A DNA stretch of 62,048 nucleotides, counting the filler, from Trichosphaerium sp. ATCC 40318 (Eukaryota; Protista; Tubulinea), in assembly GCA_038496445.1 (NCBI GenBank). It is 3 parts of 3 records of this genome, joined end to end, with 100 filler letters (N's around TTAATTAATTAA, not from the genome) between each part and the next. Parts side by side here need not be neighbours in the genome. Positions count along the whole stretch, not along the records: positions 23,200 to 51,997 come from JALMLS010000429.1; 2 more parts are not named here. One strand, 5' to 3'. Shown here piece after piece: positions 15,427-58,539 of this stretch (position 1 is the stretch's first letter; the number at the start of each line of letters is the position of its first letter). Made by a program: the position numbers and the translations under genes. Below the pieces are notes generated by a model. That model made no database searches, was not told the origin of the DNA, and saw nothing but the letters and a program-made list of their open reading frames with translations.

Positions 15427-16997
15427 CTAGAGGTAAGGTATACCTATACGGCACAGTCCCAAAGAGTATTCTATAAAACAATCACGATAGTCAACACGGC
15501 TAATACATGCTCTTCTAAGACGACGATCAGTATCCCTAGAAAATCTAGGAGTGGAGGTAGACTTTTCAACATATCGAAGGCCTTTTAGTGATAGAAAAGC
15601 ATCGTTAGTAATATGATCACAGTTTTTAAGACCAATTATATAAACACCTGACAACGCTTTTACTCCTTCGTCTGTAATTGAAGTACCATCAAGATTAATG
15701 GCATGCACCCCTACAAGTGCTTTGATGCCTTCATCTGTCACTCTAGTACGAGCAAGATCAATAGCATGAACACCTGCAAGTGCTTTTATACCTTCATCTG
15801 TCACCAAAGTATCTCCAAGGTGAATTGTATGAACCCCTGCGAGTGCTTTTACACCTTCATCTGTAACTGAAGTATTATTGTTAAGGAAAATGGTATGAAC
15901 ACCTGCGAGTGCTTTGACTCCTTCATCTCCTACTGAAGTATTTCTAAGGAAAACAATATGAGCACCTCTCAATGCTTTAATACCTTCACTGGTCACTGAA
16001 GTTCTATCGAGGTAAATGGTATGTACTCCTCCAAGCTCTTTTAAACCTTCATCTGTGACATGAGTGCCAGTGAGTTTAATAGTATGAACACCCTTTAATG
16101 ACTTGATGCCTTCATCTGTCACGTTATTGCAGTTTAAAAGATCAATTGTATGAACTCCTGCAAGGGCTTTGATTCCTTCATCTGTCACCAATGTGGAAGT
16201 AAGATCAATTGCATGTACACCTTTTAGTGCCTTGAGGCCACTGTCTGTGATATTGATACAACGATAAAGAGAAATAGAATGTACTCCTGCAAGTGATTTA
16301 AGATCACAATCATTGATAACTCCATATTTTACATTATATAACTCTGGGTTTCTTTTGAACGAAGTATCAATGTATTTACATCCAGATAACAATGAATATA
16401 ATGTATTGTTTTCAACATTCATCACAATGACGCTATTTTTCATGATACCTTTGTACTGTCTGACCTTTAAGATGTCTGGGATATCGTAAATATAGACTCT
16501 TTCATATCCAACAACCTGATGGATGATATCAGCCATCAAACGACATGACTGAGCAACAGCAAATCTTGATTTCGCATCTGTATGACTTAAAATCGTAGAT
16601 ATAACTTCTGGTGGGAAATTGATGATGTTCACTACTTTATGTGAACTTGTTTGTGTTCTTTTAAACTGTTAGCACAAACTATTTACAGTTTCAAAACGCA
16701 CTTTCTCTTTTGCTTGTGTTTTGGTAGCGATAGGTCGTCGAAATGTGTCACAGGTATAATAGTTGCATTGTTGGAATGTACTGGAGGCTGTTTGGATGAG
16801 ATAGCGCTTGTATCAATACTTTTAGAGAGATATTGGTCGAGTTGGTGTAAAAGGTTCTTGTTTGCAATGTTTAAGATATTTTCAAGCTGGTTTATGAACA
16901 CTTTGCGTTGTTTTGTGGTGATTTTACTAAACTGATCTTTGTGGCTGTTGTGATAGTACGTGATTGCTTGATCTACTGAAATACCTGGTAAGCTCAT
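15427..16997 (-). CDS. F-box + LRR protein with probable 5' exon (MSLPGISV...)
   Basis: FPPEVISTIL F-box and a long run of LAGVHTIxL...VTDEGIKA repeats. The upstream ORF can splice in frame via GTGCGT...TTTAAAAG. Confidence 0.82.
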
Positions 16998-23099: not shown

Positions 23100-23199
23100 N
23101 NNNNNNNNNNNNNNNNNNNNNNNNNNNNNNNNNNNNNNNNNNNTTAATTAATTAANNNNNNNNNNNNNNNNNNNNNNNNNNNNNNNNNNNNNNNNNNNN
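23100..23199. other. Assembly gap with artificial TTAATTAATTAA linker
   Basis: N run with a central six-frame-stop linker. Confidence 0.97.
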
Positions 23200-25360: not shown

Positions 25361-26513
25361 AATGTCATCAAAGCGGGTACTATTTAATTCTTTCTATTTA
25401 TAATTGTCTAACTATCATCGCTAGAGTAAATCTGTTCCCTCAATAACATCAAGTGCTCATCGCGGTTGCTACCTATTTAGCCTTCCGGCAGAGATACAGC
25501 TTGATATTTGCGATTTAGATCCCGAAGTCTATTTAAAATGGCCTCTGCTTTCAAAACATGCAGCAATGTCAACACGGTATAACTATGATATGAAAAAGAC
25601 GGGCAAGTGGTTGAAGTATAACCACAGTGGTCAATTGAGAGAACAAGGATATTTCGTCAATGATAAACTACAAGGCGAGATCAAGAAGTGGTACAAGAAC
25701 GGTCAACTAAAGAAGAGTTTTTATGTCAACGGAAAGCAAGAAGGAGAGTTTAAGAAATGGCACAGAAATGGGACCTTAAAAGAACACTGTCATTACATCA
25801 ACGATAAGCGAGAAGGAGAGTATAAAAAGTGGTACAGTAACGGTTCATTACACCGACATACTCGCTTTGCCAATGGCGAACTTGATGGCAAACTCGAGCA
25901 GTGGTATTATAACGGACAAATAGAAGAGACGTGTTTCTTCGTAAAAGGTAAAAAAGAAGGAGAGTACACACGATGGCATTGGGATGGTAAATTGTCAAGG
26001 CAAGGGTATTATATCAACGGTATACGAGATGGTAAACATACAGAGTGGTATAGGAGTGGTCACGTGTTTGAAAGGAATTATCATAATGGTAAACTTGAAG
26101 GAGAGAAAATATGCTACTACAGTAATGGTCAAATTAAAGAGCATTGCAATTACGTTAATGGCAAAATAGAAGGAGAGAAAAAGACTTGGTATTTCAATGG
26201 TCAGTTGATGAGCACGTGTTCTTATGTCAAAGGTAGAATAGAAGGAACTCAAACATGCTATTATTATCACGGTAGAGTAATGAGTCGATCTAATTTTGTC
26301 AAGAGTAAGCTTGAAGGAGAGAAGAAGTGGTGGTATGAAAATGGTAACTTGAAAGAAAAGTGTTTTTACGTTGAAGATAAACTACAAGGAAAGAGATATC
26401 TTTGGTATGATAATGGTAAATTGAGATCAAAGTACTATTTTATGAATGGTGTACTTCAAAAGAAGTATAGTAAATCATGGCACAAGCTTTTTATTGATGT
26501 ACTGTTCTATTAA
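25361..26513 (+). CDS. F-box-like + MORN-type repeat protein (short 5' exon MSSKR)
   Basis: GTACT...CTAG intron gives in-frame LPAEIQLDICDLDPEVYLKWPLLSK, then GExKxWYxNGxL repeats. Paralog of 8048-15308. Confidence 0.82.
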
Positions 26514-26858: not shown

Positions 26859-28178
26859 TTAATCAGTATAAATATAGACACCACGTTCTACAAGGTACAC
26901 TTCTACACCTATTTTTTTCAAATCATAAATGATATCTTTGTTGACAGTACTACTATGTTTCAATTCCTTTAAATATGAGAGTGTACACAAGCTCTCACCT
27001 TTTACTTTTGAACATGAATCAATATTAAGAATATGAACTCCAACAAGTTCCGCAATACCCAAGTCTGTAACTTGCTTACAGTCGAAGATGTTGACTGTAT
27101 GAGCAGAAGCTAGATACTTCAAATGATCATCTGTGATTTTCGTGTGAGACAAGTTAATGTCATGCACACCTTGCAATGCCTTTAAACATTCACCTGTAAC
27201 TTTTGTTGATGCTAGATCAATAGTATGTACACCAGCTAGCGCCTTGATACCATCATCAGTAACTGCTGTGTAGTGTAGATCAATCACATGTACGCCAGCC
27301 AAAGCTTGAATGCTCTTATCCGTAATTAATACACACTGACCCAAATCAATGGTATGGACACCTTTCAATGGTTTCAAATCATCATCTGTGATGTGCTTAT
27401 GAGGTAATGTGATCGTATGTACGCCTGCCAATGCCTTCAAACCATAGCCTGTAACATTAGTTCCAAACAAACGGATTTTATGCACACCGCTCAGTAACTT
27501 GATTACCTCATGTGTTATATTTTTACACCAAGTTAAGTCTATAGTATGTACACCTTTCAACACGTTTAAACATTCATCAGAAACACTTGTATTAGTTAAA
27601 TCAATTGTATGAACACCCTTAAGCGCTTTGACGCCTTCGTTTGTTATTCCTTTACAATGTGCTAGGTTTATAGTATGTACACCTTTCAGTGACTTTAATC
27701 CATTGTCTGTAACGTCTGTATTACGTAGATTAATCACGTGTACTCCAGATAATAGTTTGATGCCCTTGTCTGTAATTCTTCGACAATCTGACAAATTAAT
27801 GTTGTTCACGCCTGATAATGCTTTAATACCCCTATCTGTTATTTCAGAACAAAAAAGATTAATAGTAAGGACGCCTGAAAGTAAAAGCATGTTGCTGTCA
27901 GTAGCATGGACATCAATATTAGATAAAGTTATTGTTGTATTTTGAAGTAGAGGGCTTCCCGAAAGTCTAGTCAGCTCGCTTTCGTTCATTACGACAATGT
28001 TATTGTATCCAACGTGGTTGTGAACAATATCTCGCAATAGATGGCATGTTTGGGCTGTACGAAGTGTATACCTCCCTTGGTTGAGAATATGCACAATAAT
28101 CTCAACTGGCAGCGCGATTAGGTCGAAGGTTTGGTGATTTGAACCACTTTCTATCGTTTGCTGTTCACGTGCGTTCAT
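26859..28178 (-). CDS. F-box + LRR protein
   Basis: LPVEIIVHIL F-box followed by many LxGVHTIDL repeats; intact 439-aa ORF. Confidence 0.87.
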   Translation of the reverse strand: MNAREQQTIESGSNHQTFDLIALPVEIIVHILNQGRYTLRTAQTCHLLRDIVHNHVGYNNIVVMNESELTRLSGSPLLQNTTITLSNIDVHATDSNMLLLSGVLTINLFCSEITDRGIKALSGVNNINLSDCRRITDKGIKLLSGVHVINLRNTDVTDNGLKSLKGVHTINLAHCKGITNEGVKALKGVHTIDLTNTSVSDECLNVLKGVHTIDLTWCKNITHEVIKLLSGVHKIRLFGTNVTGYGLKALAGVHTITLPHKHITDDDLKPLKGVHTIDLGQCVLITDKSIQALAGVHVIDLHYTAVTDDGIKALAGVHTIDLASTKVTGECLKALQGVHDINLSHTKITDDHLKYLASAHTVNIFDCKQVTDLGIAELVGVHILNIDSCSKVKGESLCTLSYLKELKHSSTVNKDIIYDLKKIGVEVYLVERGVYIYTD

Positions 28179-30852: not shown

Positions 30853-31742
30853 ATGAGTAAAGACGAACGGGAAACTATAGAACTTCTAGACATACCGACA
30901 GAGATACTGGCGCACTTGCTTGATTTTTTAGACCGCAGTTATAGATTCCCGCTTCTCAAAGCTGTAAACGATTATCATCCATAATACTACACCACGTGGG
31001 ATACAAACGAATCTCTGTTAAATCAAGATCAGACTGTTCACGTCTTTCAGGAAGTCCACTACTAATAAACACGGAAATATACTTTGGAGATTTCATAGAA
31101 GCAACAGACTCAGATCTTTCTCTAATTTCAGGTGTTCGCAGGCTATTCCTTCGTACAAATCATGGTATCACCGATAGAGGGTTACACCGTGCTACTGGTG
31201 TTCAATCTTTAACACTACAAGATTGTAAACGCATTACAGATTTCGGAATAGGACCACTTGTTAAAAATCTTAAAACAATTTGTCTGATAGATGTAGGGTA
31301 TTATCAATTGACGTTACTTTTTCTTACTGGAATACCGAGTATTAGTTTACCATCATCGAAAATACTTACAGATGACATACTGCATAAATTAGCTGGTGTA
31401 CATACAATCGATTTAAGTGGTTGTAAACGCATCTCAGATAAAGGTATCTCATCATTGGCAGGTGTACATAAAATATACCTATGTAGCACAAACGTGACCG
31501 ACAAAGGTATATCAGCTCTTGCTGGTGTACACACTATTGATATATCTTGGTGTTTGGGAGTAACTGGATCCTGTATGAAAGATATATCAGACGCATATGA
31601 AGTTAAATTATCGTATACTAGTGCCAGTGATTATTGGATTGATCAACTTACCGGCGTCAAAGTATTACAATTACAAAATTGTAATATTACAAACAAGTGT
31701 CTAATTGCTTTGGCACAAAGAGGTGTTACAGTATGTAGGTAG
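30853..31742 (+). CDS. F-box + LRR protein, apparent frameshift near 30948
   Basis: IPTEILAHLL F-box lies in one frame and ASQSCK...HVGY plus the LRRs in the next; the shift falls at a short C run. Confidence 0.7.
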
Positions 31743-33624: not shown

Positions 33625-34826
33625 GATCAAAACAATAAAAACGTGTTTCTCTTGAAAATTTACAGTAAATCCGGATCAATTTCTACTACACCACGACGTT
33701 GTGTGAGTGGCTACAAATGTGTCAGTGTGAAAACAATGAACTTATATTTTGGCACCAGTAACACAAAGTAGAGCAACAATTACAAGGTTGTTGAACGTAT
33801 TGCGTGGAATACCCGAAAGACAAAACTTAAAATTGAAGTAGAATTGTTTGTTTGGTTTATTCGATTAAGCGAAGCTTAATTCAGGCGCAGTTCGCGTGGG
33901 TATTAAATGAATATTGGACTCGTTAATTATTACGTGAATGCGCACGCGACAAATGCCTCAGTGTATTACTAGGCGCCTTTTAAGGCAATCTGTACGCTTT
34001 CAATATGATTAAGTTATAGGTTTTATACAAGGTAAAGATAAAGGTACGCGCCTATGGCGGTTAAGTTATACAAGGTTAGGCGCCAACACTTACGAGTGCC
34101 TTTGTTAAGCGAGGTGGCTTTTTTTTTTTGTAAAACACGTGTTTTTGTGATGGCGTACTAGGCGCCCTTCAAAAAAGTGAGTTTTTGTCGAAAAAATCCC
34201 GTTTCGCGTTACATTATAGTACAACACAAGCCTATGGCTTGGGATCTGCCCCTGTTAGGTTATGTTATGTAAACTCTTTCACTAAGTATTCTTCATCTGT
34301 GTTCATCATTCTTTCTTTCACTCTTTTCAATTTTATCGTATGGTTCATATTTCTGTTATGTAGGTACTTTTTGTAAAGTTCGATTTGGTGTATCATATGA
34401 GCCATTTCTTTAGTTTTTTTCCTGAGTTTTCTGTTCGTTGATTTATCTGTGTCCAGTTCCTTGTGATATTCTGTGGCCAGTCTAGATTCTGTCCATTTAG
34501 TTGTATATCCAAAACATGATTTCTTTAAGCTCGGTCCAATTACTTCGCACGTGCTTGCTGAAACATTTTCATTGTAAAACGTTGGATATTTCATGCTGTC
34601 TTTGTATGTTATGTCTTCATGTGCGTTAGTGTAGTCTCTTTTGTTAAAGCCCAATATGGCTAGGAGCCATAGTTCGGGCGACATCTTCCTGTTGGGGTTT
34701 CTATATTTCATGAACATGTTAGTGTAGTTGAAAATTCGTTCATATAGTGGTGTGCTGTCTTCATTTTGTTCTTCTGTTAACGGTGTTAGTTTACTTTTGA
34801 TTACATTCGTTTCTAAGTGTCCTGTT

Positions 34827-35873
34827 CAGGTCTAAAAAAATATACCAGTTATTTTGGTATATACCACTTTTATACCACTTTTTTATACCAGTTTTTTATG
34901 GTATATACCAAAAAAAGTGGTATATTTTGACTGAAATATACCAAAAAAAGTGGTATATTGTCCAAATATACCAACAATATACCAAAAAAAACAGGTATAA
35001 AAGCAGAAAATATACCACTTTTTTTCACCAGAAAAAAAAAAATATACCACTTTTTTTAGGTATATACCAGTTATATACCACTTTTTTATACCAGTTTTTC
35101 ATGGTATATACCACTCTTATATACCACTTTATGCCTACTTATGGTACACCTGCAATTCCAGAAAATACACTTTATTTAATACACAGTTTGTGAGCTACAA
35201 GTTTTGGACAATGCCCACTACAGTTACATTACTATGGGCGTCTGGAAAATTCGTCCATCTCCATGAGCTTGCTGTACCTACTGTAAAAACATGCTGCGCA
35301 CCTAATGAAAGTGGTTCCACCTGAATCCATCAATTAATAAGGCCTACGGAGGTCGGTTAATGTATATCAAACGAAAATAAAATAAAACTTTGTCTGGTAC
35401 CCACGAACGTCTGTATAATACCTGCAATATAGTTTCCTTAATGTTGGTACTGGAATTAGGTCCTGCGGTTTGAATGAGCTTGGTTTGGTTAGATTCTATG
35501 ATATACTAAGGTCCCTACGCACCGTTCAATGTATGACGTCTATGATCGTTCAACAAGAAAACCCATTACCAAAAAGCTCCTTAATGACCTTCTTGAAGCA
35601 TACCATAAAAGTGGTATATACCAATAAAAAGGTGGTATATACCACATACCATAAAAAAGTGGTATATACCACTTTATATACCATTTTTAGAAGGTCTCAT
35701 TATGTGAATGAAAAGTGGTATATACCACTTCCATATACCACTTTTTTATTCACTTAATTTCTTCAAAAAGTGGTATTTCAAAATGGTATATACCAGTTCA
35801 TATACCATTTTGTTGAAAAAAGTGGTATATACCATAAAAAAACTGGTATATACCACTTTAATTTTTAGACCTG
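34827..35873. mobile_element. Non-autonomous TIR element (CAGGTCTAAAAA ends, 2-bp TSD TT) with TATACCA subterminal arrays
   Basis: Ends CAGGTCTAAAAA and TTTTTAGACCTG with TT on both sides. Removal restores ...IPITGHLETNV... in frame with ORF 34265-34717. Confidence 0.9.
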
Positions 35874-38800
35874 TTATGGGTATTGCGGTTTGTATACCTT
35901 CTAGTTTTCCATTTGTGCTAATTAAGTATTTAGTTACCTGTCCTATGACTTCTGATGTCGAGTTGAGAAAAGTTCCTATAGGGTCACAATAGCTAAGGTG
36001 TATTATGTCTTCTGCTTGCGATTCATCGGGGTCACCGCAAATTTCACACATGCTGTTTTCATACATTTCTTTCATGTATTTTTGTATATAATTGGTTGGA
36101 TTAGCGCATTTTTTTGCTATACCATAAAGTCTTTTGTTAAGCATAAGGTTATTTGTTTTCAATCTGAAGATGAAATCCTGTACTCGACCAAATTCTGCTT
36201 CATTCCTTAGAAACAGTTGATGTGATGTGTTCATGTCTGTTCCTTCGTATCTTGATGGTTTTGTGGAATCGATTATCCAGCTTTCATCCCAATATTTTTG
36301 ATTTTCTTCCTTTCTTGCTTTTTGATAGTTTCTGTGGACTACTTTACCATTTTTACTGACTATGAAATTATTATGCCCAGAACCCATTACTTCATAGTGC
36401 GGTATTCTGTTCACATATTTCCCTTTGTCCCGACCTAACTTGGCTAAGTTGTCCGCTGCTTTATTACCTGCTATGAATGCTTTCATAACGTCTTTCCCAT
36501 ATTTTTCTTCTAGCTTAGATATTTGGTTCTTTTTGTTTGTTGTTATTTCTATTGTATCATCGTCGTCAGTGTGTGCTGGTACCCACACAATTTTGATGTT
36601 GACTTCTTTCATGGCGTGATTGATTCTGTTTAATATTGAATTGAATGGTAGCTTTTTCCTTTTGTGTATATTAAGTTTCTTGTAGTTTTTGATGAGGTTT
36701 TTTGCTCCTACGCAATCTGTGCCCAGTATAGCGTTACACCCTCGGGGTATGCTTTTAGTCGCTACCTCAATGGCATAGAGTTCTGCAAATATTGGGTTTG
36801 TTACATACGGCACCGTACCATTAATTTGGTACTTTTCATTTATGAATATCCCGAAGCCTGCTCTGGAGTCATCATATTTGTTGTAGTCTTTTTCACAACT
36901 TCCGTCTGTGGATATGATGAGTATATTGTTCGTTTTAGGCATTTCATCCGTTTGTTCTGTTGTCCAGCGTTTGAAGGTAGGGTTCCATGTTTTAATATTA
37001 GGCGTATATATGATGTTTCTTTCATTACAACTGTTTATACCAGCCCACGTGTTTAAGAAGTTATCATAAATTTTGTATTTTCCTGAGCCGCATCCAGGTG
37101 ATGGTAACTTGATTTCGCCCATCTTGTTTAATACTTGCGAGTTAAATATTTGTGCATTGCGTAATCTATCTTCTTTGATAGCCACCATGATCGAGTTTGT
37201 GTCATAATTTAGTACGTCATACAGTATGGTATTACCGTATCTTTCTAATTGTAAGTCTTTGATACAGATCAAATTTTTTGCGCCTACTTTGTGACCACCA
37301 TATAGTCTATGGGCTTTTTGTGTGCTAATGGATTTACATAATTTTCTGGTTTGTTTTAGAATTGATTCTTCTATTATTTCTACTGTATCGCAAAGTATGG
37401 CTATAGACGACATAGTGTAAGCCGCTTTTGCCAGGACTAACTGATTTATTGCACGAACAGCAATTCTTGTTGGGACTCTGAATTTAGTAACATTGTTGAT
37501 CATTCTATCCATGCTTGCTTTGAGTTTGTCACAATGGGTCTTCCAGGACTTATTAAGGTTTGTCCAGATACCAAGGTCCTTGTAACATTCCTTACTTGTA
37601 TAGGCTTTGAGCGGATTATTTTTCCATTGTAAATCGTCTTTGTCTATTTCCTTAACATGTATATTGTAGGTGAAACCAGATTTTTTGGTATTGATGTCAA
37701 TGTTATAGAAACTCGCAAACGTTTTTACGATATTAAATAGTTTAACCATGTTGTTTTTGTTATCTGAGCAAAGTTTGATGTCATCTGCATAAGCTAGTGT
37801 AGATATTATTATCCCACTTATAGGATAACCGCACTTGGAATGTTGTAGTTCTTCCAACAATGGGTTGATGAATATAATAAACAGTGTGGGACTCAGGATG
37901 TCACCTTGTTTTACACCTCTGTTAATATTTATAGTCTTTTTACCTATAGGTGTGATAATTTCAGCTGTTTGGTTATCGTATACATTGTTGATAAATTCAC
38001 GGAACATTGGGTCTATATTGTAGTATTCAAGGGATTTCAGAATTGCCCATTTATCTACGCTATCATAGGCTTTCCTGAAGTCTATGTATGTGACAAATAG
38101 TGGTTTTATATTCTCTAACGCATTCTCTATAATCCCATGATATATTTTATGGTTCATGTGGCAGTTTCGTGATTGTGTGAATCCAAATTGTGCTTCTGAG
38201 ATGATCTTACGTTTAATTATGTCTTTTTGGAGCCTCCTAGTTAGGATAGTGGATAGTATTTTGTAGCTAGTGTTGAGTAATGAGATTGGTCTGTAATTAC
38301 TGACATCACGGTTATCACCTTTTTTGGGTAAAAGCACGATGTATGTTTCTTTACAGGATGCTGGGATATTTTTATTGGATATGCAAAAGTTGCACGTATT
38401 TAGAATTTCAGTTCTTTGAGGAAGGTTTTCACTATCCGCTAGTCGTTTGTATATTTCTGGACCTATACCGGAGGGTCCTGGAGTTTTAAAGTTTGCCATA
38501 TTTTAACACTTTATCTAGTTCTTTGTGTGTTATCTGTGTCATGAGTTTGTCTCCTTTGTTATATTTATTATGTTTAAAGGATTTAGGAATAAGACCTTCT
38601 TTAGCAGGTGTTGCCGTATAAATGTCTGCCCAAAAGTTACTCACAAGTTCCATCATTTTGAGTTTATCATATGTTACTACTTCTTCTCCGTCAAGTATAT
38701 ATTTGATACAGTCTGTGAATCTATTGTTATTAACATCTACTTTGCGTATTCTATTATAAAAGCGTTTTAAGTATACTCTTTCTAATTCTAACATATCAGT

Positions 38801-39781
38801 GACCTGTTTAGCACGACATTCCTCTTCCATGTTTTTATATGTATCTTTTTTGGCTTTACTAATTTTATTTAGTGCCTTTTTGGTTTCTTTGAGTAGGTGC
38901 TCATGATGGAATCCTTGACTCAACTCATTGTTCGGGTTGTTACTAAAGAAGCCTTTGAACTTGACTTGTCTATTTTTAGTAGCTTTAGTAATTTGTATTG
39001 CTTTGTCATTACAGCTTTCGTCTGTAGTACTTTCGTCTTTTAGCATCCCTTTTAGGCTAAAGAGTTTTGTACGATCTTGGTTTAGTTTTTTAATTTTGTT
39101 AGAGTTAACTAGTCTTCCGAACCCTCTGTTATTAGGGTCTTTTGTGGTATCTGTGAACTTTGCCACATGTTCAAAGAGTAATTTTGTGTATCGTCTCCAA
39201 CCTTGGTCAACTGCAAACCATTTGTTGCGTATTTCTCTTTTATCTTTGTGTGTCATTCGTGAACTTGCATCTAATTCTGTGGGTAGGAGATTTGCAATAT
39301 CACCTCTTTCATATTTAAATGAACGGACACAGTCTTTGCCTAGTTTTTTTTGATCATATTCTCTGGTTTTAAGTTTTTTGATGTATGGTATTTTCGTTTG
39401 AGTCACCACATGTTCCTTCACTGATAGGTTAGTCTCTATCATTATGGGTCTGTGGTCTGTATTTAAATTGTGTTTGTCTATTATTTTGCTGTTGTGAATG
39501 CAATCTGACATTTTATCATTCGTCAGACAATAATCAATTCGCGATTTAAATTTTGTTGGCGATTCCCAGTCACAACCGCTACAAAAGGTGTATATTGTTC
39601 CTTCATTTCTTTCACACCATACATCCCTTAGTTTGTGCTTGTCAATAAAGTTTGTCATTGTTTTAGTATTATGTTGGGTTTTAGTGGAAAACCTAAATTT
39701 GTCTATTGTACGATGTATCATGTTAAAATCTCCAATTATTGCTAGTTTGGAGTTATTAGTTAAGTTACTGTCCTTTATAGA

Positions 39782-41920
39782 CAGGTCTAAAATTTTTAAG
39801 CTGTTTTTATGGTAGATACCATGGATTTGTGGTATAATTATACCATTGATTACAATTTTATACCACAAATTCCAGTATAATATACCATAAATCAAAGGAT
39901 TTATACCATGAAACAGCCAAATTATACCATAAATATGCAGTAGAAAGTGCGAATTTATACCATATTTTTGCACCTGAAAAAATGCAATATATGGTATAAT
40001 TCTACCATAAAACATGATATAAAACATAGTATAATACCATAAAGCTTGGTATATTATACCATAAAACTTGGTATATTATACCACAAAACATGGTTGCAAT
40101 ATACCATGAAGCGTGGTATATTTTACCACAATAACCAGTACAATATACCATAAAACTTTGTACATTATACCACAATTTGTGGTACTTGTACCAACAATTT
40201 ATTTACATTTGTCGTTGTTTTTACAGTACAATCCATCATATTATCCAGTGATCTAAAAGAAACCAATGTACCTTCACTAAATTCCATTCTGACATTCAAA
40301 AACATGTCTTTACCACAGCACGAAATGAACTACAAAAAAAGTTAACAATGACTTTACCTACAATTTTATGATGCACAAAATGAATGGGCATATAAAACCT
40401 TTTGTTTTGTCATGGCAATGGTACCAAATCTTGCTTGCGGCCCATGCGGTGGTGCCAAAATCAAACTACATAAAAAAAAAATAAAAAAAAATTGCCAAAT
40501 TTTATCCAAAACACGTTTCAAGGTGATCGTACCTGCCTACAGCTAACTCATCTTCAGGTTTTTTTTAATTAACACCTAATTAGCCTGTAAGACCTTTTAA
40601 ACACCTTTAAAGCAACTATCTAGTAGCGTACCTGGTGTTGTGTGAGCGACGGACCAGTTGAGACTTAGTAGCATGCCTTAACTTAGTTACTTATTGGCAT
40701 ATTGGATATTCAACACAACACGTTGGTATAAAACCTAAATGCTACTCATATCAGTGAGCACAAACAGCTGGTAAAAAAAAAATTGAGAAAATCTCAAAAA
40801 TTCCAAAAAAAAACAAAATAATATGAAAAAAGGCGGGTGTGTAAACAACTATGCTTTATTACAATAAAAAGGTGGTTTAACACACATTGGAGTACTTTTT
40901 AAAGATCTCAAAAAAAAACAAATAATTTCGGGCAAGTTTTGGTAGATTTAGCCCGGATGGCATTTATTATGCATAAAAATGCGTTTAAGAAGGAAAAAAA
41001 ATCTCACAGTGGGTACAAAAACATCCGACAGAGGTTTTTTTTCACAAACGCCGATTATGCGCCGAATATGTGCCGATTACACCATAAACACATTTAAAAG
41101 GTTCCAACAAGCAAAGTATGTCCTTTGCAGTGTGTGTACCTTTGTTGAGTGCCGATTACTCCACAACTGCCTTTTGCCTGTGTTCAAGGCCACGCTACGC
41201 CCTGTTAGCACATTTTTGAACGACAAATGTTAGATTTAGCGTTTTACCTTCTGTGGACAATTACCGCTACTATTAGCCACTTCTCTGACCCCTCAATGAT
41301 GTGTTGGATGCCTTGGTATGCTATTTAGAATAATTAGTGGAATAAGCATGTTATAATACGTAAAAAGTGCAACTAACAAGCACCATATGCGCAGCATGTC
41401 CCAGAGAATGTGTTTTAGTCAGTTTTGCTGTTTAAGTGTATGCTTACCCTTTAGTCGCTGAACTACCTTCACAAAACAATGTATTACACATTTGAAAGGT
41501 GTTTTAAGTGCTGTAACAGATAATCCAAACACAAGGACTGAAGGTAAGGTAAAACAGAAATACGGCACATTAACCCTAACCCTAACAGAAAATTAGGTGT
41601 TGTGGTATAATGTACTTTAAAATACAGTATAATACCATGGTATAGTACCATGTTTTACAGTATAATTATATGGTATAATGCACGGTATAATATACTTTAA
41701 AATGCAGTATAATACCATGGTATAGTACCATGTTTTATGGTATAATTATATGGTATAATGCATGGTATAATATACTGTAAAATGTGGTATAATACCATGG
41801 TATAGTACTATGTTTTATGGTATAATTATATGGTATAATTATGGATTATACTGAGCTTGTACCATAAAAGGTGATTATACCATAAAATATGGTATTATAC
41901 CATGATAATTTTCAGACCTG
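39782..41920. mobile_element. Non-autonomous TIR element (CAGGTCT ends, 2-bp TSD GA) with ATACCA/TGGTAT subterminal arrays
   Basis: Ends CAGGTCTAAAATT and AATTTTCAGACCTG with GA at 39780-39781 and 41921-41922. Removal restores MNEISNSIKDSN inside the APE domain. Confidence 0.9.
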
Positions 41921-44900
41921 GAATTTGATATTTCATTCATGAAGGACGGTTGTTTATTATGGTCGTTAGGACCGTATAATCCTATTAATGTCATTTTTGG
42001 TTTATCTGGGAGTGTTATGTAGCATTTGATTGCTTGATTACTCACTTCAGTGATAGGGTGTATTGCTACATATGGGTTTATTTCTTTGCGTACGAATATG
42101 CCTATGCCTCTTTGAGCATTTAACTTGTAATTGTTGAGAAGGTTGCATCGTTGTTTTGCTGTAGCTAGGTCAACCTTATCTTTTTTGATCATTTGGTTTA
42201 TCACTTTCTTATGTTTGAAGGCTTTTAACTCCATGTCTGAGTATCCAAACAAGTGGAATTCATAATCTTGGATCACTCTATTGTATTCTCTCGCTATGCT
42301 TATTCTTGATTTATCGCGTAATCCTGTTTCAGTGACAAACAATATATGTGGTTTATTGTCATCTAGAAAAATAGCAAGACTTTGCATCTTTCTTTTAAGG
42401 CATTTGCGTATGTTTATTTCTCCAAATTTAAAGGTTGAGTGTGTATCTAGATTATTTTCATCATCAGTTATATTTTTGTTTTTACCTCCGCCTACCAATT
42501 TACTTATTGCTTTTATTTGTAATTTGTTATTTTGGGCGTATAGTGTTATTGGAATTGTATTACTGATGCGTATTGGTTTGGGAATAACACCTGGGAAGTT
42601 TGTTACTAGGTAGATCTCTTCTTTAGTGTTGAATTCCGAGCGTATGCGTTCCATTAGATTTGAGGTGGTTGATATGTTTGGTTCAGTCATTTGTATACTG
42701 TTTTTATTGAGTACTGCCTTGATATGTATTTTATTTCCTTTTACAGCGTTTATTTTTGTTGTTTCTTGGTGTTTATTCCATTTGATTATAGGTTTAGCTT
42801 TATACATTACCCATTCTATGAACTTCAGGTAATATTTAGTTGAATATACCCACATGCTAATACTAACGCCACCTATTAGTCGTATAACATATTGTGTCTT
42901 TTCTAAGTGATCTTTACTAAAGATGTCATTACAATTGGTTATATGTAACGCTATATGAGGTGCTATCAACATGGTAACGATTTTGATCTTGTTAGTGTAG
43001 TTTGTATTATTTTGTGTGTAATTAAATTTGCGTATCTTTCTAAGTGTACTTTTCTTTAGTCTGCGTTTATATTCTATCGGTAGTCGTATTTGTATTGGTT
43101 TTTTAGCGAAAAGAACAAAAATAGCGAATATCCAGTGTGAAATTGTATAAATCAGCAGAAAATCTGTTTTATCCAAAACGTTGTATGTTTTAGCTGTTCG
43201 TTCCTGAATTGATGCGTTTTTACGCATCATTGAGCATGAATTTTCGGGAAACATAAAAGCACCGAAAACAATCATAACCATAAAGAGGATCACTATTTTA
43301 TATAACAGGGAAAGGAACTGTGGTGAAGACATTTTAAAAAGGAAATTTATTGAGCTGTTTTTGATTTTGTGAAAAATTTTAACTATGTGTTTGTACGTCG
43401 TCGTTACAAGGTATATAATTATTATTACTAGCATACTTATTTTATACGTTTGAGGTATGCTTGCTCTCTTATTCCGTACTTCCATTTGATGATTTTGTTT
43501 TGGGCTTTGTCGTATGCTATATTTTTCGCTATTTTGGGTGAGTATATTTTTTAGTGGATTGTTATACTTACCACTAGGGTTTGCAAACATGATGTACACT
43601 GCTGTGTATTGATTTTGGCTATTAGATGCTTTGTAAATCATTGCGGCTTCTTCAACGCCAAAATGTTTCAATACTTTTAAGAAGCGGCTTGTTAGAGAAC
43701 GCATACCACTCAAGGTTATACTGCTTAGTTCTAATGAGAGCTCTTTTTTGAATTCAACCACGTATTCACATACTAGGTTGTGTTCAATAATAGTTATCGC
43801 TCCTTTGTATTCTTTGAAGCTCTTGGCATTTGCAAATGTGAATTTGACGTTTATGCGATCGTTTTTGTCCTTGTACGCTGCTTCATAGATTGAGTGTTGG
43901 AATTGTTTTAACGTATCTTGTTTTAGGTTATTTAAAAAGTTTTCTTTGTCGAAGATTATTAAATCTTCTTGTTCTTCGCATAGATTGTGAGGGATATTAA
44001 ATACTGTCACTTGAAATTTGTCTTCGCTGAGGATGTCGATAACCATATTATAGCTTGGTGTTACTGTGTTTTCGAGTGTGAATGTACGACTAATCATCCA
44101 TGCGTCGTTGATATAATTAGCACAAGGGATTAAATATCCTTTGTACTCGTTTGAGTAAGACGCTTCTACGAAACGGAAAGGTAATTCGTTGTTGGAGATT
44201 CCTTTGTTCGCTAGTTCTACTCTTTCTTTAATGCTGATTACTGACATCTGTTCTAGCTTGACGAAGATGAATACACCTTGTCCGCTTCGGTTTGTGTGGA
44301 TTGAGAATTCTGCAAATTCTGGCGGTGCTGAGAGGTTTTCAGTAGGCATCGTTTCTACTTCGTCAAAGAGATTTTCTGCTATTAGATATCCTTCCTCGTC
44401 AACCAAGGGTTTGTTTTCTTGTTTATAGAATTTCTCGAATGGATTATCTATACTTAGCCCCATGATTGTAGCACTGATTCAACTAGTTTTGCCGCACTTG
44501 TTGCGCCGATGTAGTCTAAGTTGGCCATATGAAAGAACACAAATTGTGCTTTACCTGTTTTAAATTTAGGAACGGTTTTGGTTTGTAGAAAACAATTATG
44601 AAACTTTGTTATACCTATTTTGTTGCTATTGTTGAAGCGTTGGAGGAGTGCCATCGTGTTTACTAGACGTGTTTCAACATCTGTTCGTTTGTCGATAGCT
44701 TTACGTAAGAATTCTTTTATGCACATATCTGCATATTTGTTCCATCTCGCTAGTTCAGTGTGGTTTTTAAGGAAAAATATTCTCGGCGTATCTGGGATCC
44801 ATATTTTTTCCAATATGAATTCAGGTTTTTTGAAAATACCTGGGTCCTTTGGCGTAGTCGATGTTATTTTTTGGTGTACATATTTCTGTATTTGTAGGTA

Positions 44901-46418
44901 CGTCTTTTGTATTTGTTTGAGCGATAATGTTTTGTAATTTATCATCATCGTTTTCGGAGTGCTTTTATTTATGTTGTGTACTAGTTCCTTACACACTCTA
45001 ATCATGATATCTGTTCGGTTCATGTGTAGTTTTTGTGTTGCGATAACCAGTTTTCATCATTTTTAATAATTTGTTGGCGCGATACCAAGCCTTTGATTCT
45101 GGTTGCATGTTCCGGCCACAGATCGCTTGTTTTCGCTTTCTTTGTATTAGTTTCTGTTCTTACTCCTTGTAATTTACGTTTGGGTTTATTATTCTTACCA
45201 GGCTCCGTTGTATTTGTTTGTGGAGGTGTTCTTGTTTGAGGTTTAGTGGGTTCTCTTTCGGTTGCTGTGTTTCCTTCCGGTTTAGATGCACTGTTTGCTG
45301 TATCTTTTAGTTTATTTAGTTCTTTAATGCCTTGTTGGATTGCATTTTTGATACCTTCGTTAGGTGTATTTGGTGATTGCTCACTTTCTGTCATACATGT
45401 ATCAGCGTCAGTTACGGGTTCAGTCATTATTGTTGATAAAGATATTTGTCGATATTTTACTCGCTTTGACAAATGGTGCGTATACGAAAACGAAAAAGGC
45501 GAAAATGATTTTGAAAACTCTTTTTTGATTTGTGTAACATTTTTTGGGCTATTGTTGTTTAGATTGTGTTTTATTACGTTGATAGCGGTGCTACCAACGT
45601 TTACAGATGAATTTAATTTAACCGCCAAACGGCAGTATTCTATAGGGCGTAGTGGGCGTGTTTTTGATATAGCAGCTCGTCCCTCCTGCTTTAAAGTTCT
45701 AGAATATAAAAATATTCTAACCGATACATTTTTAACAGATTCTATTGTGTACCGGTCGCAATAGATTGTAATACCATAATTACCGAGGGAGATAGAATTA
45801 TTGAACGTTGAGCATGTTAATTTACTTGTCTGTATGTACGGAGAACTTCCATACACCAGCTCCAAGAGTACTATAAGGTTTGTCAACAACCAAATAGTAT
45901 TAGACGTTGCATTCATCGTAAATAATTTTTTCCCCCTGAAGTAGAATTGTAGTAAATCTTGTGTACAAATAAAGTCAATACCATAAACCACAGTCAAGTA
46001 ATGGAAGCGTACGACATCTTGGTATTGCGAAAGGTTGTTTTGGCACTTTAGACTTGGATCTAAGCCGTTTGTTTAGAAAAAACAGGTTCTTGAAGATATA
46101 TTGGCTTGGCGGGTCAGTAAACGACCTAATTTTGCGTCTGTATCTATATTGGAAGCATGTCAACAGTATGTGAAGCTTATCGCTCGTTTTTTGTTCTCAA
46201 AGCTACAACAAACGCATTGGTTGCGTTTTTTGCGGTTTTACAGTTTTCTTGTGAATGGGGCAAACATTAAACCGTTTGAACTTTTAGTGTTCATCAATAC
46301 ATCGTCTCTCACAATGACCCATTCGTATCACTCCGATACAAGAAGCGTGGATCCAATTCTACTAATGCCATCACTTCCATAAACGCCAAGGTGACGACAT
46401 TCACTAACTTCACAGGTA

Positions 46419-51997: not shown

Positions 51998-52097
51998 NNN
52001 NNNNNNNNNNNNNNNNNNNNNNNNNNNNNNNNNNNNNNNNNTTAATTAATTAANNNNNNNNNNNNNNNNNNNNNNNNNNNNNNNNNNNNNNNNNNNN
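51998..52097. other. Assembly gap with artificial TTAATTAATTAA linker
   Basis: N run with linker. Confidence 0.97.
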
Positions 52098-52581: not shown

Positions 52582-55500
52582 TCATATACTGTGTTCATTT
52601 TTTTGCAATTCTTTTTCTTTTTTTCTTTGTTGGTTGGCCTTTTGGTGGTTTTCCAGGCTTTCTCTTTTTTTGTGTTTTCCTTGGAGATATTCGCTGTATA
52701 TCAGGTCCTTTTTGCACATCTTTTTCTTCTTCTTCATCATCATCTTCATTTTCACTGTCATTTTCACTTTCATCATAACTTGGTGTATGTTCTATTTGCC
52801 TTTGTGATTGTATAAAAGGAGTACCTAATATTATAAATATGGATATATTTTGTATTACTTACTAGAAATAAGTTTTTGATATGCAACATTGCTAGGATGT
52901 ACATCAATTGTGATTTGCACAACATTTGAATCTTCTGGTTTTGAATAAGAAACAAATTCTCCAATTTCCAATATTTTATCTATAACCATTGTCATTTGTT
53001 CTTCAACATTTTTAGATTGAGATGGCTCAAACATAGAATCTGTATTTTTTTTTGAAACATCATCAATGTTTTGTTCAGAATCTGAAGGATTAAATTCATT
53101 ATCTTCTCTGTCATGTTCTGTTGATGATGAAGATGACTCATCTTCTTCCTCTTTCTGTTTTGTTTTTCTACTTGATGTTTTTTGTGCCTTTGTAGAGGTT
53201 CTTTTTGTTGAACTTGAAGTGTTTACATCTTGCATATCCACATCATCATCATCATCAACAACAATATCAGCATTTTCGCTGGATTTATTAGATTGATGAG
53301 AATCTTTTTTGTCTTTTAAGTAATTATCATATACTTTTACTTTGGCTACAAATAGTTATGTATTTAAATGTATAAAATGATGTTTTACCTGCCAATGTTG
53401 TCTTGTCTTTACCATAATGTTTGCTCCAATGAGATGTAGCAGCTTTTTCATGGTCAGTTAATGGTTTTCTGCTTTGTCTAGCTGACTTTGTTTGTTTCTG
53501 CTTTTTTTCCTTGTATTTCTTCATATTTTCAATAACTCTGCTATGAAGTGTTTTTCCTAGTATATATTTAGTATTAATATTATAAATTGAAAGTGTATAC
53601 TAATATGCTTGTGCTCAGAATAATAGCTGTCATATGCTTGTAAGCAATTATAACCCATTGCCACTGTTACTGAATCATTTGAATAGTTTAATTCCTCTGT
53701 GCTTTTTCTTTTTGTTGAGCCAAAGGATGGTCTTTATCTTTTGCTGGTGGCCAACCTTCTGCAGGAGGAAATAATAGGGTGGGGTCAAATGTGTATAGCC
53801 TTTTTAGGTGATTTGTATCATCTAAAGCCATGATATCTCTGTGTGTTAAAGGGTCTTGTTTCAAGTGTGTTTTAACAAAGTCCCATAACTACAAATATAT
53901 GTTAATATTGTGTTATTGAAAAAAATTGTACAGCTTCTAGTGTGTTTTTTGCATTTATGTATTGTTTAAACTTCTGTTTAGCTTTGGGATCACATGTATA
54001 CTGTCTATTTCCAACAGCTTTTAAAAACTAAACATATTAATAAGTACAACATATTAACTTTTTTCTACAAATCAGTTTGACATGTTAATAAAACATAGAA
54101 AGATATATTACGTAAACGGATCGGTTCGATCCGTTGGCGAAACATTATAAGATATATTACGTATACGGATCGGTCCGATCCGTTGACGAAACATTATAAG
54201 ATATATTACGTAAACGGATCGGTCCGATCCGTTGATAAAACAGCACGTATTTTATTACAAATTTAGTTTTGCTAATGTTTGAACTTTGTACGTACTGCTA
54301 TTCTCATCCTTTTAGGAGCTTTAGCCCAAAATATATCTCCAAACCATCTTTGATTAAAGCCTGTAGGCAGTCTATTTAACTATAGAGATAGTTAGTAGTT
54401 ATGTGCATGTGCAACTATTTGTACTGAGGTTGCTTGTAAACCCATCAATTCAATAAGATCTTTATCTATACCATGCAAAAAAGCCCCTCCTCTTACAATC
54501 AATTTAAACTCTCTGGGAGTTCTTACTAGGTTTGACACTCCAAGATCACAAAAGTTATACACCTAAACTATTAGTACAATAGAAAATAAAAATAATCTTA
54601 CTGATTGAAAAGTTACACCAGGTTTTTTAGGAGACTTTCTTGTCACAGAAAAATCGCCATTCTACATTTAGTTAAATGATATGATTTATATTGATATCGT
54701 ACTTTTTCTAATCCATACTGTTCACAAAATTTATCATAACAAAATATCATTTTATCTAAAAGATGACTATCTTTTGTGGCCTGTCCCAATTTGTTCCATG
54801 CTGCACAAAAGGATATAATGCTATTTAATCTCACACGCACAGACAACCAACCCACAGTTTTTAATTGAAAATCCTTTTTCAAAATACTAAAATAAATATT
54901 AGTTATTGTGTATGAGTATTTGTACCATAAAGATGCTAGTAAACCATGAGAGCCATCACCAAGACAAAAACCAGGATGAACTTGAGGTTTTCCTTTCCTT
55001 CCACCTGGTACATATAAAGTGCCACTTTCGACCAATAATATTTTTCTATTGTGTGGTGGACTTGCTTCTGTAGCTGCTGCCATTTGTAATAAAAAGTTCT
55101 CTAAATTAAAACCTCTGACTGGTAAAAAGCACACAAGGTCTGACATTGATGGAACTGTCAAACTTTTTGCTTTTTCTGCCGGTGTGTATGTTTTATTACT
55201 GATATCAATAAAATGATCATCTTCGTCAAATAATTCTTGGTAATTATCAGGTAATGTAAAACAACTTGGGCCAGTTGTCATCAAATACCTATAGTAGATT
55301 AACTAATTGTAATAAACTAATACATACTTTTGATAATTATCTGTCTCTTTCATAGTTGATATCATCAAAGACTTTCTGTAGTATTTCATTAAAAACCCTT
55401 TATAGTGGTTACCATTAGCAAGTTGTAGACCAACAGCTTTTGGAAATAGTTCAAGTTTGATTAGAAGACTCCAAATGTGCTTTCTTCTGGAAAATCGTGT

Positions 55501-56550
55501 AAAAAAGGCTTCATCTGTCTCAGCTGCTTTTCTTTTAACAGGGTTAAACCACCTTTTTGGAGATGCTTTATAATCTGATTGTATGGCATCTATAAATTCA
55601 ATTGGTTGTTTGTTATTTGTAAGAAATGGTAAGTGTGCCTAACTCAATTAGTATAGCCTGATATGGTAATACTTACTCTTATATCATTAATAAAGTTTTT
55701 GTCCTCTTTAATTTTAACCTCTAATTCCTCTAATGTCTCACCAAAACATTTACATAATAAGGTCTCGAATACACTCCATGGCATCAATTTTGCAAAAAGA
55801 CCTGTAGCACCTTTGTGATATTCACTATAAATGAGTGAGTATATATATTATAATGTATTGACTTACATAAACCCATATCTTTCACCATTACCATCCACTA
55901 CAGCACCATATTGAGTTATATATTCTTGTAGCTTTCTGGAAGTGTCATAATGATCTTCTTTTGCAATACAAAGCCAACCCTCTCCTAATAAAGATATTAA
56001 ATCAAATATAAAAAAAATAAATAATATTATGATAATGGATCGGACCGATCCGTTTACGAAACAAACAAATATATATTTCGAAAATGGATCGGTCCGATCC
56101 ATTTACGAAACAAAAATAAATATATTTCGATAATGGATCGGTCCGATCCGTTTACGAAACAAAAATAAATATATTTCGATAACGGATCGGACCGATCCAA
56201 CTATCAAAAATTATTTTTATAATTTATATATAAAATATAAATATATTTAAAAAGAATATTTTGGTGATGGATCGGTCCGATCCAAATATAAAACAAAAAA
56301 AATTTTGTTTTACTAACGGATCGGTCCGATCCGTTGTCAAAATATAATATTATATGTTATATATAACATAAAAACTTAAGTCAGCAAAAGTAAACATTCA
56401 ATGAATTCTATAAAATTTCTCAAAATCAAAAAACTCTTCAAATTGATTTCTTTTAGGCTTATTAGCCTTAAATTAATTTTAAAAGCTTAATTTTAAAGGT
56501 TTTAAATTTATTTGAGTACCTATTTTATCTTTTAGCTCTTTAGCTGCCAT
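52582..56550 (-). CDS. Large multi-exon hypothetical protein with acidic/basic low-complexity C-terminus
   Basis: First exon MAAKELKDKI|GTACTC, then ORF segments (55863-55985, 54643-55284, 53327-53524, 52855-53241) separated by short introns. Confidence 0.55.
54100..54240. repeat. 3 x 49-bp tandem repeat with palindromic core ACGGATCGGWCCGATCCGT
   Basis: Units begin at ~54100, 54149 and 54198. Confidence 0.9.
56033..56335. repeat. 6 copies of the same palindrome (first four at 49-bp period)
   Basis: GGATCGGWCCGATCC at ~56037, 56086, 56135, 56184, 56269 and 56318. Confidence 0.9.
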
Positions 56551-56979
56551 TTTGTTCCCTGAGGCTTCCTGAGTGTGTGATGTCTTCAAGGCTAGCTGTA
56601 TGTGCCTTGCTGTGCTTCTCATCAATTAATCAAAGTCAAAATAAGTTCGTCGTCCGCGATATTTTCATAACAGAGAATACTATGTTATGAAGTTACTATG
56701 ATTCGACTTAGGCATTTTTTTTGGTTTTTTTTTGAATATTGAACTTTTATTAAAAAAATAATGTACAAAAAATATAATGAATTGGAGAGAAAAACTTATA
56801 TCATAGAAATTTGTTTGTTTAGTAATTAATTATAAACATACAAAACTATATTATAAGGAAAAAAACTGATTTTTTCACAAATCCTAACTTTGTTCCTTGA
56901 CTTTCCATGACTGTACCAATGCACACGCTTGTTACACACTCATATACAAAGACATTCCACTTTTACCCGAACAAAATAC

Positions 56980-58470
56980 AGCTACTATGCCATCACTTTC
57001 TTTTTGGCTACTATGCCATTTCACTATTTTTGGCCACTATGTCATCCCTTTCTTTGGCTAATATGCCATCACACTTTCTTTGGCTAATATGCCATCACAC
57101 TTTTTTTGGCTACTATGTTATCACACTATCCCTCGACTACTATGTCATCACATTTTCTTTGGCTACTATGCCATCACTTTCTTTTTGGCTATTATGCCAT
57201 CTCACTATCTTTGACTACTACGTCATCACACTTTATATGCCATCACACTTTTTTTGGTTACTATGTTATCACACTATCCTTCGGCTACTATGTTATCACA
57301 CTATCCCTCGACTACTATGTCATCACACTTTCTTTGGCTACTATGCCATCACTTTCTTTTTGGCTACTATGCCATTTCACTATTTTTGGCCACTATGTCA
57401 TCACTTTTTTTGGCTAATATGCCATCACACTTCTTTTGACTACTATGACATCACATTATTCTTTGACTACTATGTTATTGCACTTTGACTATTATACTAT
57501 TTTTTTCTTTGGCTACTATGTCATCACACTATCTTTGGCTACTGTGCCATCACCCTTTTTTTGGCTACTATGCCATCTCACTATCCTTCAACTACTATGT
57601 TATCTCACTATTTTTGGCTATTACGTCATCACACTCTCTTTGGCTATTACGCCATAACCCTTTTTTTGGCTACTATGCCATCTCACTATCCTTGGCTACT
57701 GTGCCATAACCCTTTTTTTGGCTACTACACCATCTCACTATCCTTCAACTATTATGTCATCTCACTATTTTTGGCTATTATGCCACCACACTTTCTTTGG
57801 CTAGTACACCATCACACTTTTTTTGGCTACTATGCCATCACTCTTTCTTTGGCTACTGCGCCATCACTTTTTCTTTGGCTATTATGCCATCATTCTTTCT
57901 TTGGCTATTATGCCATCACATTATCTTTGACTATTACGTCATCACACTCTCTTTGGCTATTACGCCATAACCCTTTTTTTGGCTACTATGCCATCTCACT
58001 ATCTTTGGTTACTGTGCCATCACACTTTTTTTGGCTACTATGCCATCTCACTATCCTTCAACTACTATGTTATTTCACTATTTTTGGCTATTACGTCATC
58101 ACACTCTCTTTGGTTACTATGTCATCACTTTTTCTTTGGCTATTACACCATCACACCATCTTTGACTACTATGCCATCTCACTATCCTTCAACTATTATG
58201 TCAATCTCACTATTTTTGGCTACTACGCCATCACTTTTTTTTTAGTTATTACGCCATCTCACTATCATTGGCTATTATACCATCTCACTATCCTTCAACT
58301 ACTATGTTATCTCACTATTTTTGACTACTATTTCATCACTTTCTCTTTGGCTACTACTCCATAACTCTTTCTTTGGCTATTATGCCATCACATTATCTTT
58401 GACTACTATGTCACCACACTCTTTTTGGCTATTATGTCGTCACACTCTTTTTGGCTACTATGTTATCTCT
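56980..58470. repeat. Minisatellite, ~24-26-bp unit TTTGGCTACTATGCCATCACAC(T)n
   Basis: Continuous imperfect tandem units over ~1.5 kb with higher-order blocks and no unique spacers. Confidence 0.93.
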
Positions 58471-58539
58471 CTTTTTTTAATTACTAATGTATTTTTATGA
58501 CCATTTTTGCTACACCATAATATATAATGATGCAATAGA

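Follow-up and report, generated by a model that had tools for sequence, protein, structure and literature searches.

Introduction

APE-type retrotransposons without long terminal repeats (non-LTR retrotransposons), here referred to as long interspersed nuclear elements (LINEs), carry two open reading frames (ORFs) whose products are described as unprocessed, and both the making and the scarcity of the ORF2 protein (ORF2p) are treated as an open question (PMC3894237). Here we describe a LINE on the minus strand of a 62,048-nucleotide stretch of DNA from the protist Trichosphaerium sp. ATCC 40318 (assembly GCA_038496445.1; this entire stretch is called the window), in which an ORF1-like region and three hydrophobic segments precede the enzymes in the same reading frame.

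Ambal elements encode an APE endonuclease, a reverse transcriptase (RT) and an RNase H, and Proto1 and Ambal are both two-ORF elements. An RNase H has been reported for Proto1 as well (PMC4640811). Several LINEs depart from the simple two-ORF plan: 2A sequences are found in the APE elements L1Tc and Ingi and in some CR1, L2, L2A, Crack and Rex1 elements, where they sit 40-80 residues from the start and are linked with ORF1 loss (PMC3708506), and ORFs connected by stop-start overlaps or frameshifts are described for SART1 (PMC3708506) and for Paramecium groups 1-3 (PMC5405496). Membranes enter the picture with the esterase-type ORF1 proteins (ORF1p) of CR1, RTEX and ZfL2, for which a targeting of the ribonucleoprotein particle (RNP) to membranes was proposed and a vesicle route was the subject of speculation (PMC3905857), and with the LTR retrotransposons of bdelloid rotifers, which possess a separate ORF3 with transmembrane segments whose role is unclear (PMC5408684). 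In the literature that we searched, we found no description of a LINE with transmembrane segments or diglycine sites fused ahead of the APE domain; Repbase and Dfam lay outside this search, and the layout may be catalogued there.

Results

A leader in frame with the enzymes of a LINE

The element is a genuine LINE with APE, RT and RNase H domains and a Cys/His finger (Table 1), and the statements made here about it rest on this one copy and on distant relatives. As the initial annotation of this DNA had it, the element is bounded by an exact 14-bp repeat; no other match shared by the two flanking zones is as long (the runner-up has 10 bp), and about 0.02 matches of its length are expected by chance between the zones searched. 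The element shows the target site duplication, the A-rich 3' end and the APE upstream of the RT that mark APE-type LINEs, no LTR was present among the repeats listed for the window, and the catalytic motifs of both APE and RT were located. From ATG 45916, which sits 20 nt within the 5' end, to the final stop we measured 8462 nt after removal of two nested elements, in agreement with the length of about 2820 codons that had been proposed. The claim that the element is full-length fared less well: in the single copy examined, its reading frame is open across the 5' junction; the LINE is likely full-length, and a 5' truncation is possible.

A single frame that starts at ATG 44463 comprises 676 codons before the APE, is open into the APE and continues into the nested element at 41920, as previously claimed. 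The frame changes at three positions of the element, at about 45023, 44460 and 38495. They had been read as three 1-nt shifts at homopolymers, and while their number stands, homopolymers are weak evidence of error: runs of at least four identical nucleotides occur in 29-47% of same-size windows within the LINE and are hence too common to settle the cause of the breaks. The break at about 38495 is a lesion or a sequencing error, since it lies inside ORF2, which is continuous across this position in five aligned relatives. At both 5' breaks an ATG overlaps the stop or lies just ahead of it. These two could be lesions or errors, which the relatives L081 and L182 favor, or stop-start overlaps, which the adjacent ATGs, the relative L086 and SART1 allow. 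A programmed -1 frameshift was considered as well, and no canonical slippery heptamer was seen by eye at either site. We consider it slightly more probable than not that frames A and B (Table 1) are part of the same precursor; that they are reached through stop-start reinitiation falls just short of an even chance. The fusion of the leader to the enzymes holds irrespective of the two 5' frame breaks.

The hydrophobic block

The stretch 43449-42844 is stop-free in the frame of the LINE, and every one of the five alternative frames has 7-22 stops; none of 5000 dinucleotide shuffles was open (mean 14.4 stops). An intron was rejected as an explanation of this block because it is open for 202 codons. 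Where about five hydrophobic segments had been noted, we find three Kyte-Doolittle peaks above 1.6 in a 19-residue window (Table 1); a fourth is weak (1.34), and beyond these nothing exceeds 1.0. Judged against stop-free sequence simulated from local base composition (1500 runs per setting), three such peaks in a 202-codon block have a P of 0.009-0.026, and the strongest peak alone was reached in 0.9-7% of the simulations. T occupies codon position 2 with a frequency of 0.41 in the block, compared with 0.33-0.34 in the simulated sequences (P 0.008-0.019). The charges are unevenly distributed: 12 K/R and 1 D/E follow segment 3, the loop between segments 2 and 3 holds 5 K/R, 4 D/E and one N-x-S sequon, and the loop preceding segment 2 is basic. 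This pattern fits a hairpin formed by segments 2 and 3, and hydrophobicity and charge together make insertion of the leader into a membrane plausible.

Codon use is element-like in frame B, in the RRM-like part and in the segment preceding the APE; that of the first 162 codons of frame A is equally near to host genes and to the element. For the hydrophobic core, the per-codon score is -0.018 +/- 0.043, compared with +0.04 to +0.06 for held-out element sequence and -0.06 for host genes, and because this value is intermediate, codon use does not separate a membrane-anchored precursor from its rivals.

Diglycine motifs and the ORF1-like region

Counted along the 44463 frame, [RK]LxGG motifs terminate at residues 532 and 659; two are found in 340 residues where 0.005 are expected by composition, the motif having been chosen post hoc. 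Such diglycine motifs end ubiquitin-like (Ubl) domains and are cut by deubiquitinases. A Ubl domain itself, which had been postulated ahead of the APE, was not confirmed: neither candidate segment gave a Pfam match at E up to 10 or a ubiquitin-like match in the PDB, and a single-sequence AlphaFold model bearing on the candidate reached a predicted local distance difference test (pLDDT) score of 34.6. Proteolytic processing of the leader is predicted from the two motifs, together with an LKGG in one relative. With respect to the polyprotein suggested earlier, the in-frame fusion of leader, hydrophobic block and APE-RT-RNase H is thus a direct observation, and its processing rests on motifs.

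The RNA recognition motif (RRM) domains attributed to the ORF1-like region could not be substantiated beyond a by-eye pattern. Pfam gave no RRM match in the LINE; the Atlas search yielded weak leads for residues 40-320 (DUF4780 at 0.81) and no match for residues 320-700. An AlphaFold model of the region had a pLDDT of 38, so that both AlphaFold models are of low confidence; Foldseek found no match at E 0.001, and a second structure aligner attained a Z of at most 4.6. Upstream, frame A has a weakly hydrophobic, signal-peptide-like start (mean Kyte-Doolittle value over 19 residues, KD19, 1.46), a T-richer first 490 nt and then a K/T/P-rich low-complexity stretch; its Pfam search gave no match above the cut-off.

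Placement of the reverse transcriptase

In RT trees, the LINE groups with LINEs that bear an RNase H and stem from metagenomes or contaminant contigs, to the exclusion of named vertebrate, plant and arthropod LINE proteins. This grouping received 0.945 in a FastTree tree with 74 of the 334 RT-bearing sequences and 82 in ultrafast bootstraps (UFBoot) of 39 chosen sequences (94 for a subclade); it is possibly inflated, because the sequences were chosen with a preference for high scores against a profile of this LINE and its best matches. Named proteins of Anolis, Salmo, Coffea and Trifolium make up a group of their own (UFBoot 89), their L1/Tx1 labels being drawn from source names and Pfam content. 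Membership in L1/Tx1, including the plant L1 elements with RNase H, was rejected, the RT of the LINE lying outside this named-protein group. An RNase H after the RT, a feature of the Proto1 and Ambal clades, is present in our LINE, and one of these two is likely its named home, on trees that lack their reference sequences. By eye, a lysine-rich insertion in the APE is common to this LINE, P0121, P0122, P0123, L081, L182 and L183 (P and L are our handles for fetched proteins and loci); P0121 and L081, though sharing it, fall apart from the other carriers in the RT tree. Two clade relatives bear extra C-terminal domains, namely PPR repeats in P0123 and chromodomains in P0125.

Leaders of the relatives

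L081, the best RT match among genome contigs, is open in one frame for at least 2029 codons. Its APE begins at residue 1036, behind a 1035-residue leader in which a hydrophobic N-terminal segment, stretches of low complexity and an ORF1-like region are followed by sequence of mild hydrophobicity. In L182 (989-4864, minus strand), an 848-residue leader in frame with the APE contains an ORF1-like region and no hydrophobic peak; its Ubl-sized segment ends in LKGG, 95 residues ahead of the APE. In L183, a hydrophobic segment lies within an in-frame leader that is at least 407 residues long. Ahead of the APE, P0121 and P0122 possess one hydrophobic peak each and P0128 three, P0123 has a short hydrophobic start under the threshold, and P0124-P0127, P0129 and L086 have no peak; L086 is built from two ORFs joined by an ATGA overlap.

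Leaders were counted by one rule throughout (at least 15 residues for the clade, at least 30 for non-clade proteins without NPGP), leaving out two clade proteins with leaders below 15 residues, one with an unlocated APE start and two duplicates; the 13 clade leaders include P0141, which the UFBoot tree places outside the clade. A hydrophobic peak is present in the in-frame leader of 5 of the 13 clade members, compared with 7 of 77 non-clade proteins without NPGP, and in 5 of 12 NPGP-bearing leaders, all 5 of which have it within 350 residues of the APE; these sequences are non-independent, and in many cases a contig end or a gene caller has truncated the leader. Taken together, the relatives show recurrent long in-frame leaders, a modest hydrophobic enrichment and a multi-segment leader in one other clade member. 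The distant relatives support the layout of the leader, not its sequence.

Single-protein locus scans of viral and metagenome contigs yielded no relative, alignment scans yielded distant elements only, and no second copy of the L081 or L182 leader was found in its own assembly. A profile search among proteins of 3776-5000 residues gave three matches, all of them gene models with unrelated domains, which we rejected. The 717-residue leader of P0157 combines two hydrophobic peaks with an NPGP motif ahead of the APE, and in L004 (5453-18805, plus strand) APE, RT and an RNase H match share a frame of 4451 codons. L182 is a contaminant contig in a bacterial metagenome-assembled genome (MAG), and the eukaryotic LINE contigs L081, L082, L083, L085, L086, L088, L089, L096, L115 and L123 are assigned to prokaryotic MAGs, one such case involving contigs of 0.7-1.5 Mb; eukaryotic contamination of the genome collection is the likely cause.

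Nested elements, insertion site and other features of the window

Both nested elements end in CAGGTCT...AGACCTG, and element 1 has no long ORF of its own. When they are excised, a duplication of 2 bp is the only one among lengths 0-3 that reopens the LINE frame, in both cases, just as had been reported for their removal. The nested elements show the short terminal inverted repeats, the subterminal repeats and the 2-3 bp duplication that mark CACTA/EnSpm-like elements, and are presumably non-autonomous DNA transposons of this type. The present LINE copy is broken, since nested element 1 splits the APE. In the empty site (33743-33847 joined to 45951-46072), a 75-codon minus-strand frame spans the insertion point; the target of the LINE may have been a small ORF or an exon of the host. 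The last 143 nt of the LINE's 3' end fold with a z of -2.0, and an Rfam search of the 3' untranslated region (UTR) gave no match.

The window consists of three joined contigs, with N gaps at 23100-23199 and 51998-52097 that contain the linker TTAATTAATTAA mid-gap. A viral origin was rejected because its kinase, filamin-like and trypsin-like genes are apparently split by introns. Among intron-bearing genes lie intronless paralogues with Pfam F-box/LRR (6696-7589, 15427-16668, 26859-28178, 30945-31742) and MORN_2 repeats (14027-15308, with a frame break near 14720, and 25425-26513); F-box/LRR and MORN-repeat genes of this kind are common in giant viruses. The segment 8591-14101, in which imperfect inverted repeats (8591-8654, 14037-14101) surround a split gene with DUF7869 (E 1.9e-21), is likely a 5.5-kb DNA transposon, and so, likely, is 54035-56358, where inverted 49-bp subterminal repeats with GGATCGG/CCGATCC cores surround ORFs of no known family (54643-55638). 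Split ORFs at 60229-61494 show by eye the residue patterns of a tyrosine recombinase (Crypton-like), with no Pfam match; a tandem array of about 26-bp units with strong strand bias occupies 56900-58500, and other transposon remains are present as well.

Table 1. Features of the Trichosphaerium LINE, listed from its 5' to its 3' side (positions along the window).
Feature	Position	Strand	Remarks
Whole non-LTR retrotransposon (LINE)	33848-45936	-	12089 bp including nested elements, 8899 bp excluding them
Target site duplication, element 5' side	45937-45950	.	exact 14-bp repeat
Frame A, 298 codons	45020-45916	-	stop overlaps next ATG (ATGA)
Frame B, 189 codons	44454-45023	-	no known family; stop 7 nt past ATG 44463
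ORF1-like region, possible tandem RRM-like domains	43534-44463	-	by-eye pattern
Hydrophobic segment 1	43384-43440	-	KD19 1.70, basic both sides
Hydrophobic segment 2, likely transmembrane	43252-43308	-	KD19 2.52
Hydrophobic segment 3, likely transmembrane	43105-43161	-	KD19 2.18, then 12 K/R in 27 residues
Diglycine motif 1, RLIGG	42868-42882	-	candidate cleavage site
Diglycine motif 2, KLVGG	42487-42501	-	17 residues ahead of APE; candidate cleavage site closing a possible Ubl-sized segment
APE endonuclease, first half	41921-42435	-	aligned with relatives; lysine-rich insertion common to six relatives
Nested element 1	39782-41920	.	2139 bp, CAGGTCT termini, 2-bp duplication, subterminal repeats; interrupts APE
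APE second half and linker	38486-39781	-	Pfam PF14529, PF03372; 3' limit is the frame break in conserved ORF2
Reverse transcriptase	37642-38328	-	Pfam RVT_1 E 1.6e-34; YADD at 37791
RNase H	36430-36921	-	Pfam RNase_H E 2.6e-9; D-E-D-H-D residues
C-terminal finger, CxxC...HxxxC	35986-36048	-
Nested element 2	34827-35873	.	1047 bp, same CAGGTCT termini, 2-bp duplication
C-terminal portion of coding frame	34265-34826	-
3' UTR, 417 nt	33848-34264	-	short hairpin at about 33865-33881, tail of A-rich short repeats
Target site duplication, element 3' side	33834-33847	.	exact 14-bp repeat

Discussion

The data reported here lend themselves to a model that we favor tentatively, granting it somewhat less than an even chance: the LINE would make a single ORF1-ORF2 precursor with its anchor in a membrane of the host, and host proteases of the deubiquitinase type would cleave it and thereby free the enzymes. 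The region 44463-43530 would be the equivalent of an RNA-binding ORF1p. Segments 2 and 3 would form a hairpin with a short, near-neutral luminal loop, so that the ORF1-like part and the enzymes stay cytosolic, and segment 1 would lie on or in the membrane. Cleavage after KLVGG would release APE-RT-RNase H with a 17-residue leader; the freed enzyme would bind its own RNA, enter the nucleus and insert by target-primed reverse transcription, giving rise to the 14-bp duplication. The anchor may serve RNP assembly at the membrane and limit free ORF2p, and would take over the task that stop-start overlaps or 2A peptides have in other LINEs.

Several results weigh against a membrane-tethered precursor. 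The evidence comes from one copy, the block was selected after inspection, its strongest peak is marginal against the narrowest null (P 0.07), and its codon use is intermediate between element and host. No profile or fold match was obtained for a Ubl or RRM domain. No relative of the leader turned up by sequence among 1.84 billion representatives, where the one match was to the APE part, or among the fetched proteins and loci, L081 included. The segment before KLVGG resembles its L182 counterpart no better than shuffles do (P 0.67), the LKGG of L182 is without the preceding K/R of [RK]LxGG, and the hydrophobic segments of L081 are mostly within base-composition expectation (P 0.04-0.44). Clade support is moderate (UFBoot 82), and within the clade the traits in question are sparse: a peak at most 350 residues from the APE is present in 3 of 13 leaders (6 of 77 outside), more than one peak in only 1 of 13, and an LxGG in 1 of 13, compared with 3 of 77 others.

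The T-richness of the leader allows for a different history, in which ORF1 and ORF2 became fused via a T-rich spacer, once inter-ORF or promoter-like, that stays open only for the passage of ribosomes; the hydrophobic residues would then be a by-product of T-rich codons, and the product no integral membrane protein. Among the coding parts of the LINE, T-richness is indeed highest in the first 490 nt and in the block, whose codon use is not clearly element-like, the block lacks a homologue, and the leader of L081 contains long low-complexity stretches and hydrophobic segments that are largely compositional. However, the enrichment of T at codon position 2, the excess of three peaks over the stop-free null and a charge asymmetry that matches membrane topology speak against such a spacer, and we regard it as unlikely. 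The 5' part might also be a captured host membrane-protein mRNA, template-switched in frame onto ORF2 in the present copy or a recent ancestor and without a role in transposition. The absence of a LINE homologue of the leader and the codon use of the first 162 codons of frame A and of the hydrophobic core, equally near to host and element, are compatible with a capture, but a host-like homologue was likewise not found, frame B, the RRM-like part and the pre-APE segment are element-like in codon use, and equally long in-frame leaders occur in relatives; we consider a capture very unlikely.

If the segments do engage the membrane, they might act as internal signal sequences that divert most of the enzyme to disposal at the endoplasmic reticulum (ER), the leader serving as a brake on ORF2p. 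By eye, P0121, P0122, P0123, P0128 and L183 have a hydrophobic stretch ending in small residues before the APE, within about 15 residues of it in four of the five; LINEs have been argued to need low ORF2p (PMC3894237), and some 2A-like sequences also serve as signal sequences (PMC4981915). In our LINE, however, behind the last strong segment comes a strongly basic stretch, and therefore the downstream part is predicted to be cytosolic; the APE starts about 220 residues further on. A brake of this kind is accordingly distinctly unlikely here. At the far end of the range, one may picture a protist LINE lineage with a virus-style ORF1-ORF2 polyprotein, about 2800 residues long, that passes through the ER membrane and is cut by host signal peptidase and deubiquitinases, with RNPs on membranes or vesicles and a cell-to-cell route; we judge this highly improbable, and none of our results supports the vesicle packaging or cell-to-cell spread envisaged in the initial annotation.

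If the membrane-tethered precursor is real, a lineage that joins ORF1 to ORF2 by way of membrane segments and sites for host proteases would add another solution to those of reinitiation and 2A skipping, and would offer a direct handle on the membrane role proposed for LINE RNP assembly and horizontal transfer (PMC3905857).

Comparison with known systems

The 2A-bearing LINEs are similar in having one long frame with a processing signal before the APE. They differ in that the leader of our LINE comprises at least 676 residues without NPGP, a motif absent from the leader of the 44463 frame and not seen in frames A and B; membership among them, with DxExNPGP before the APE, was rejected, and NPGP-bearing proteins fall outside the RT clade of the LINE. 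With stop-start LINEs, the element shares an ATGA overlap at the 45023 break, like that at the ORF1/ORF2 junction of L086, but its overlaps are located upstream of the ORF1-like region and not at the border between ORF1 and APE. In the LINEs with an esterase ORF1p, a soluble SGNH esterase from a separate ORF1 binds lipids (PMC3905857), whereas here the hydrophobic segments are in frame with the enzymes, and the Pfam search gave no esterase. Like the bdelloid LTR retrotransposons with their ORF3 (PMC5408684), our LINE is a retroelement with a coding sequence that would bear transmembrane segments; no env-like cysteine pattern or homology was found in it. Proto1 has in common with our LINE the set of APE, RT and RNase H and a host that is likely not an animal; its RNase H is reported in PMC4640811. 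Compared with Proto1 and Ambal by their descriptions only, the Trichosphaerium LINE stands apart in that its ORF1-like region is in frame with the APE, which follows behind hydrophobic segments.

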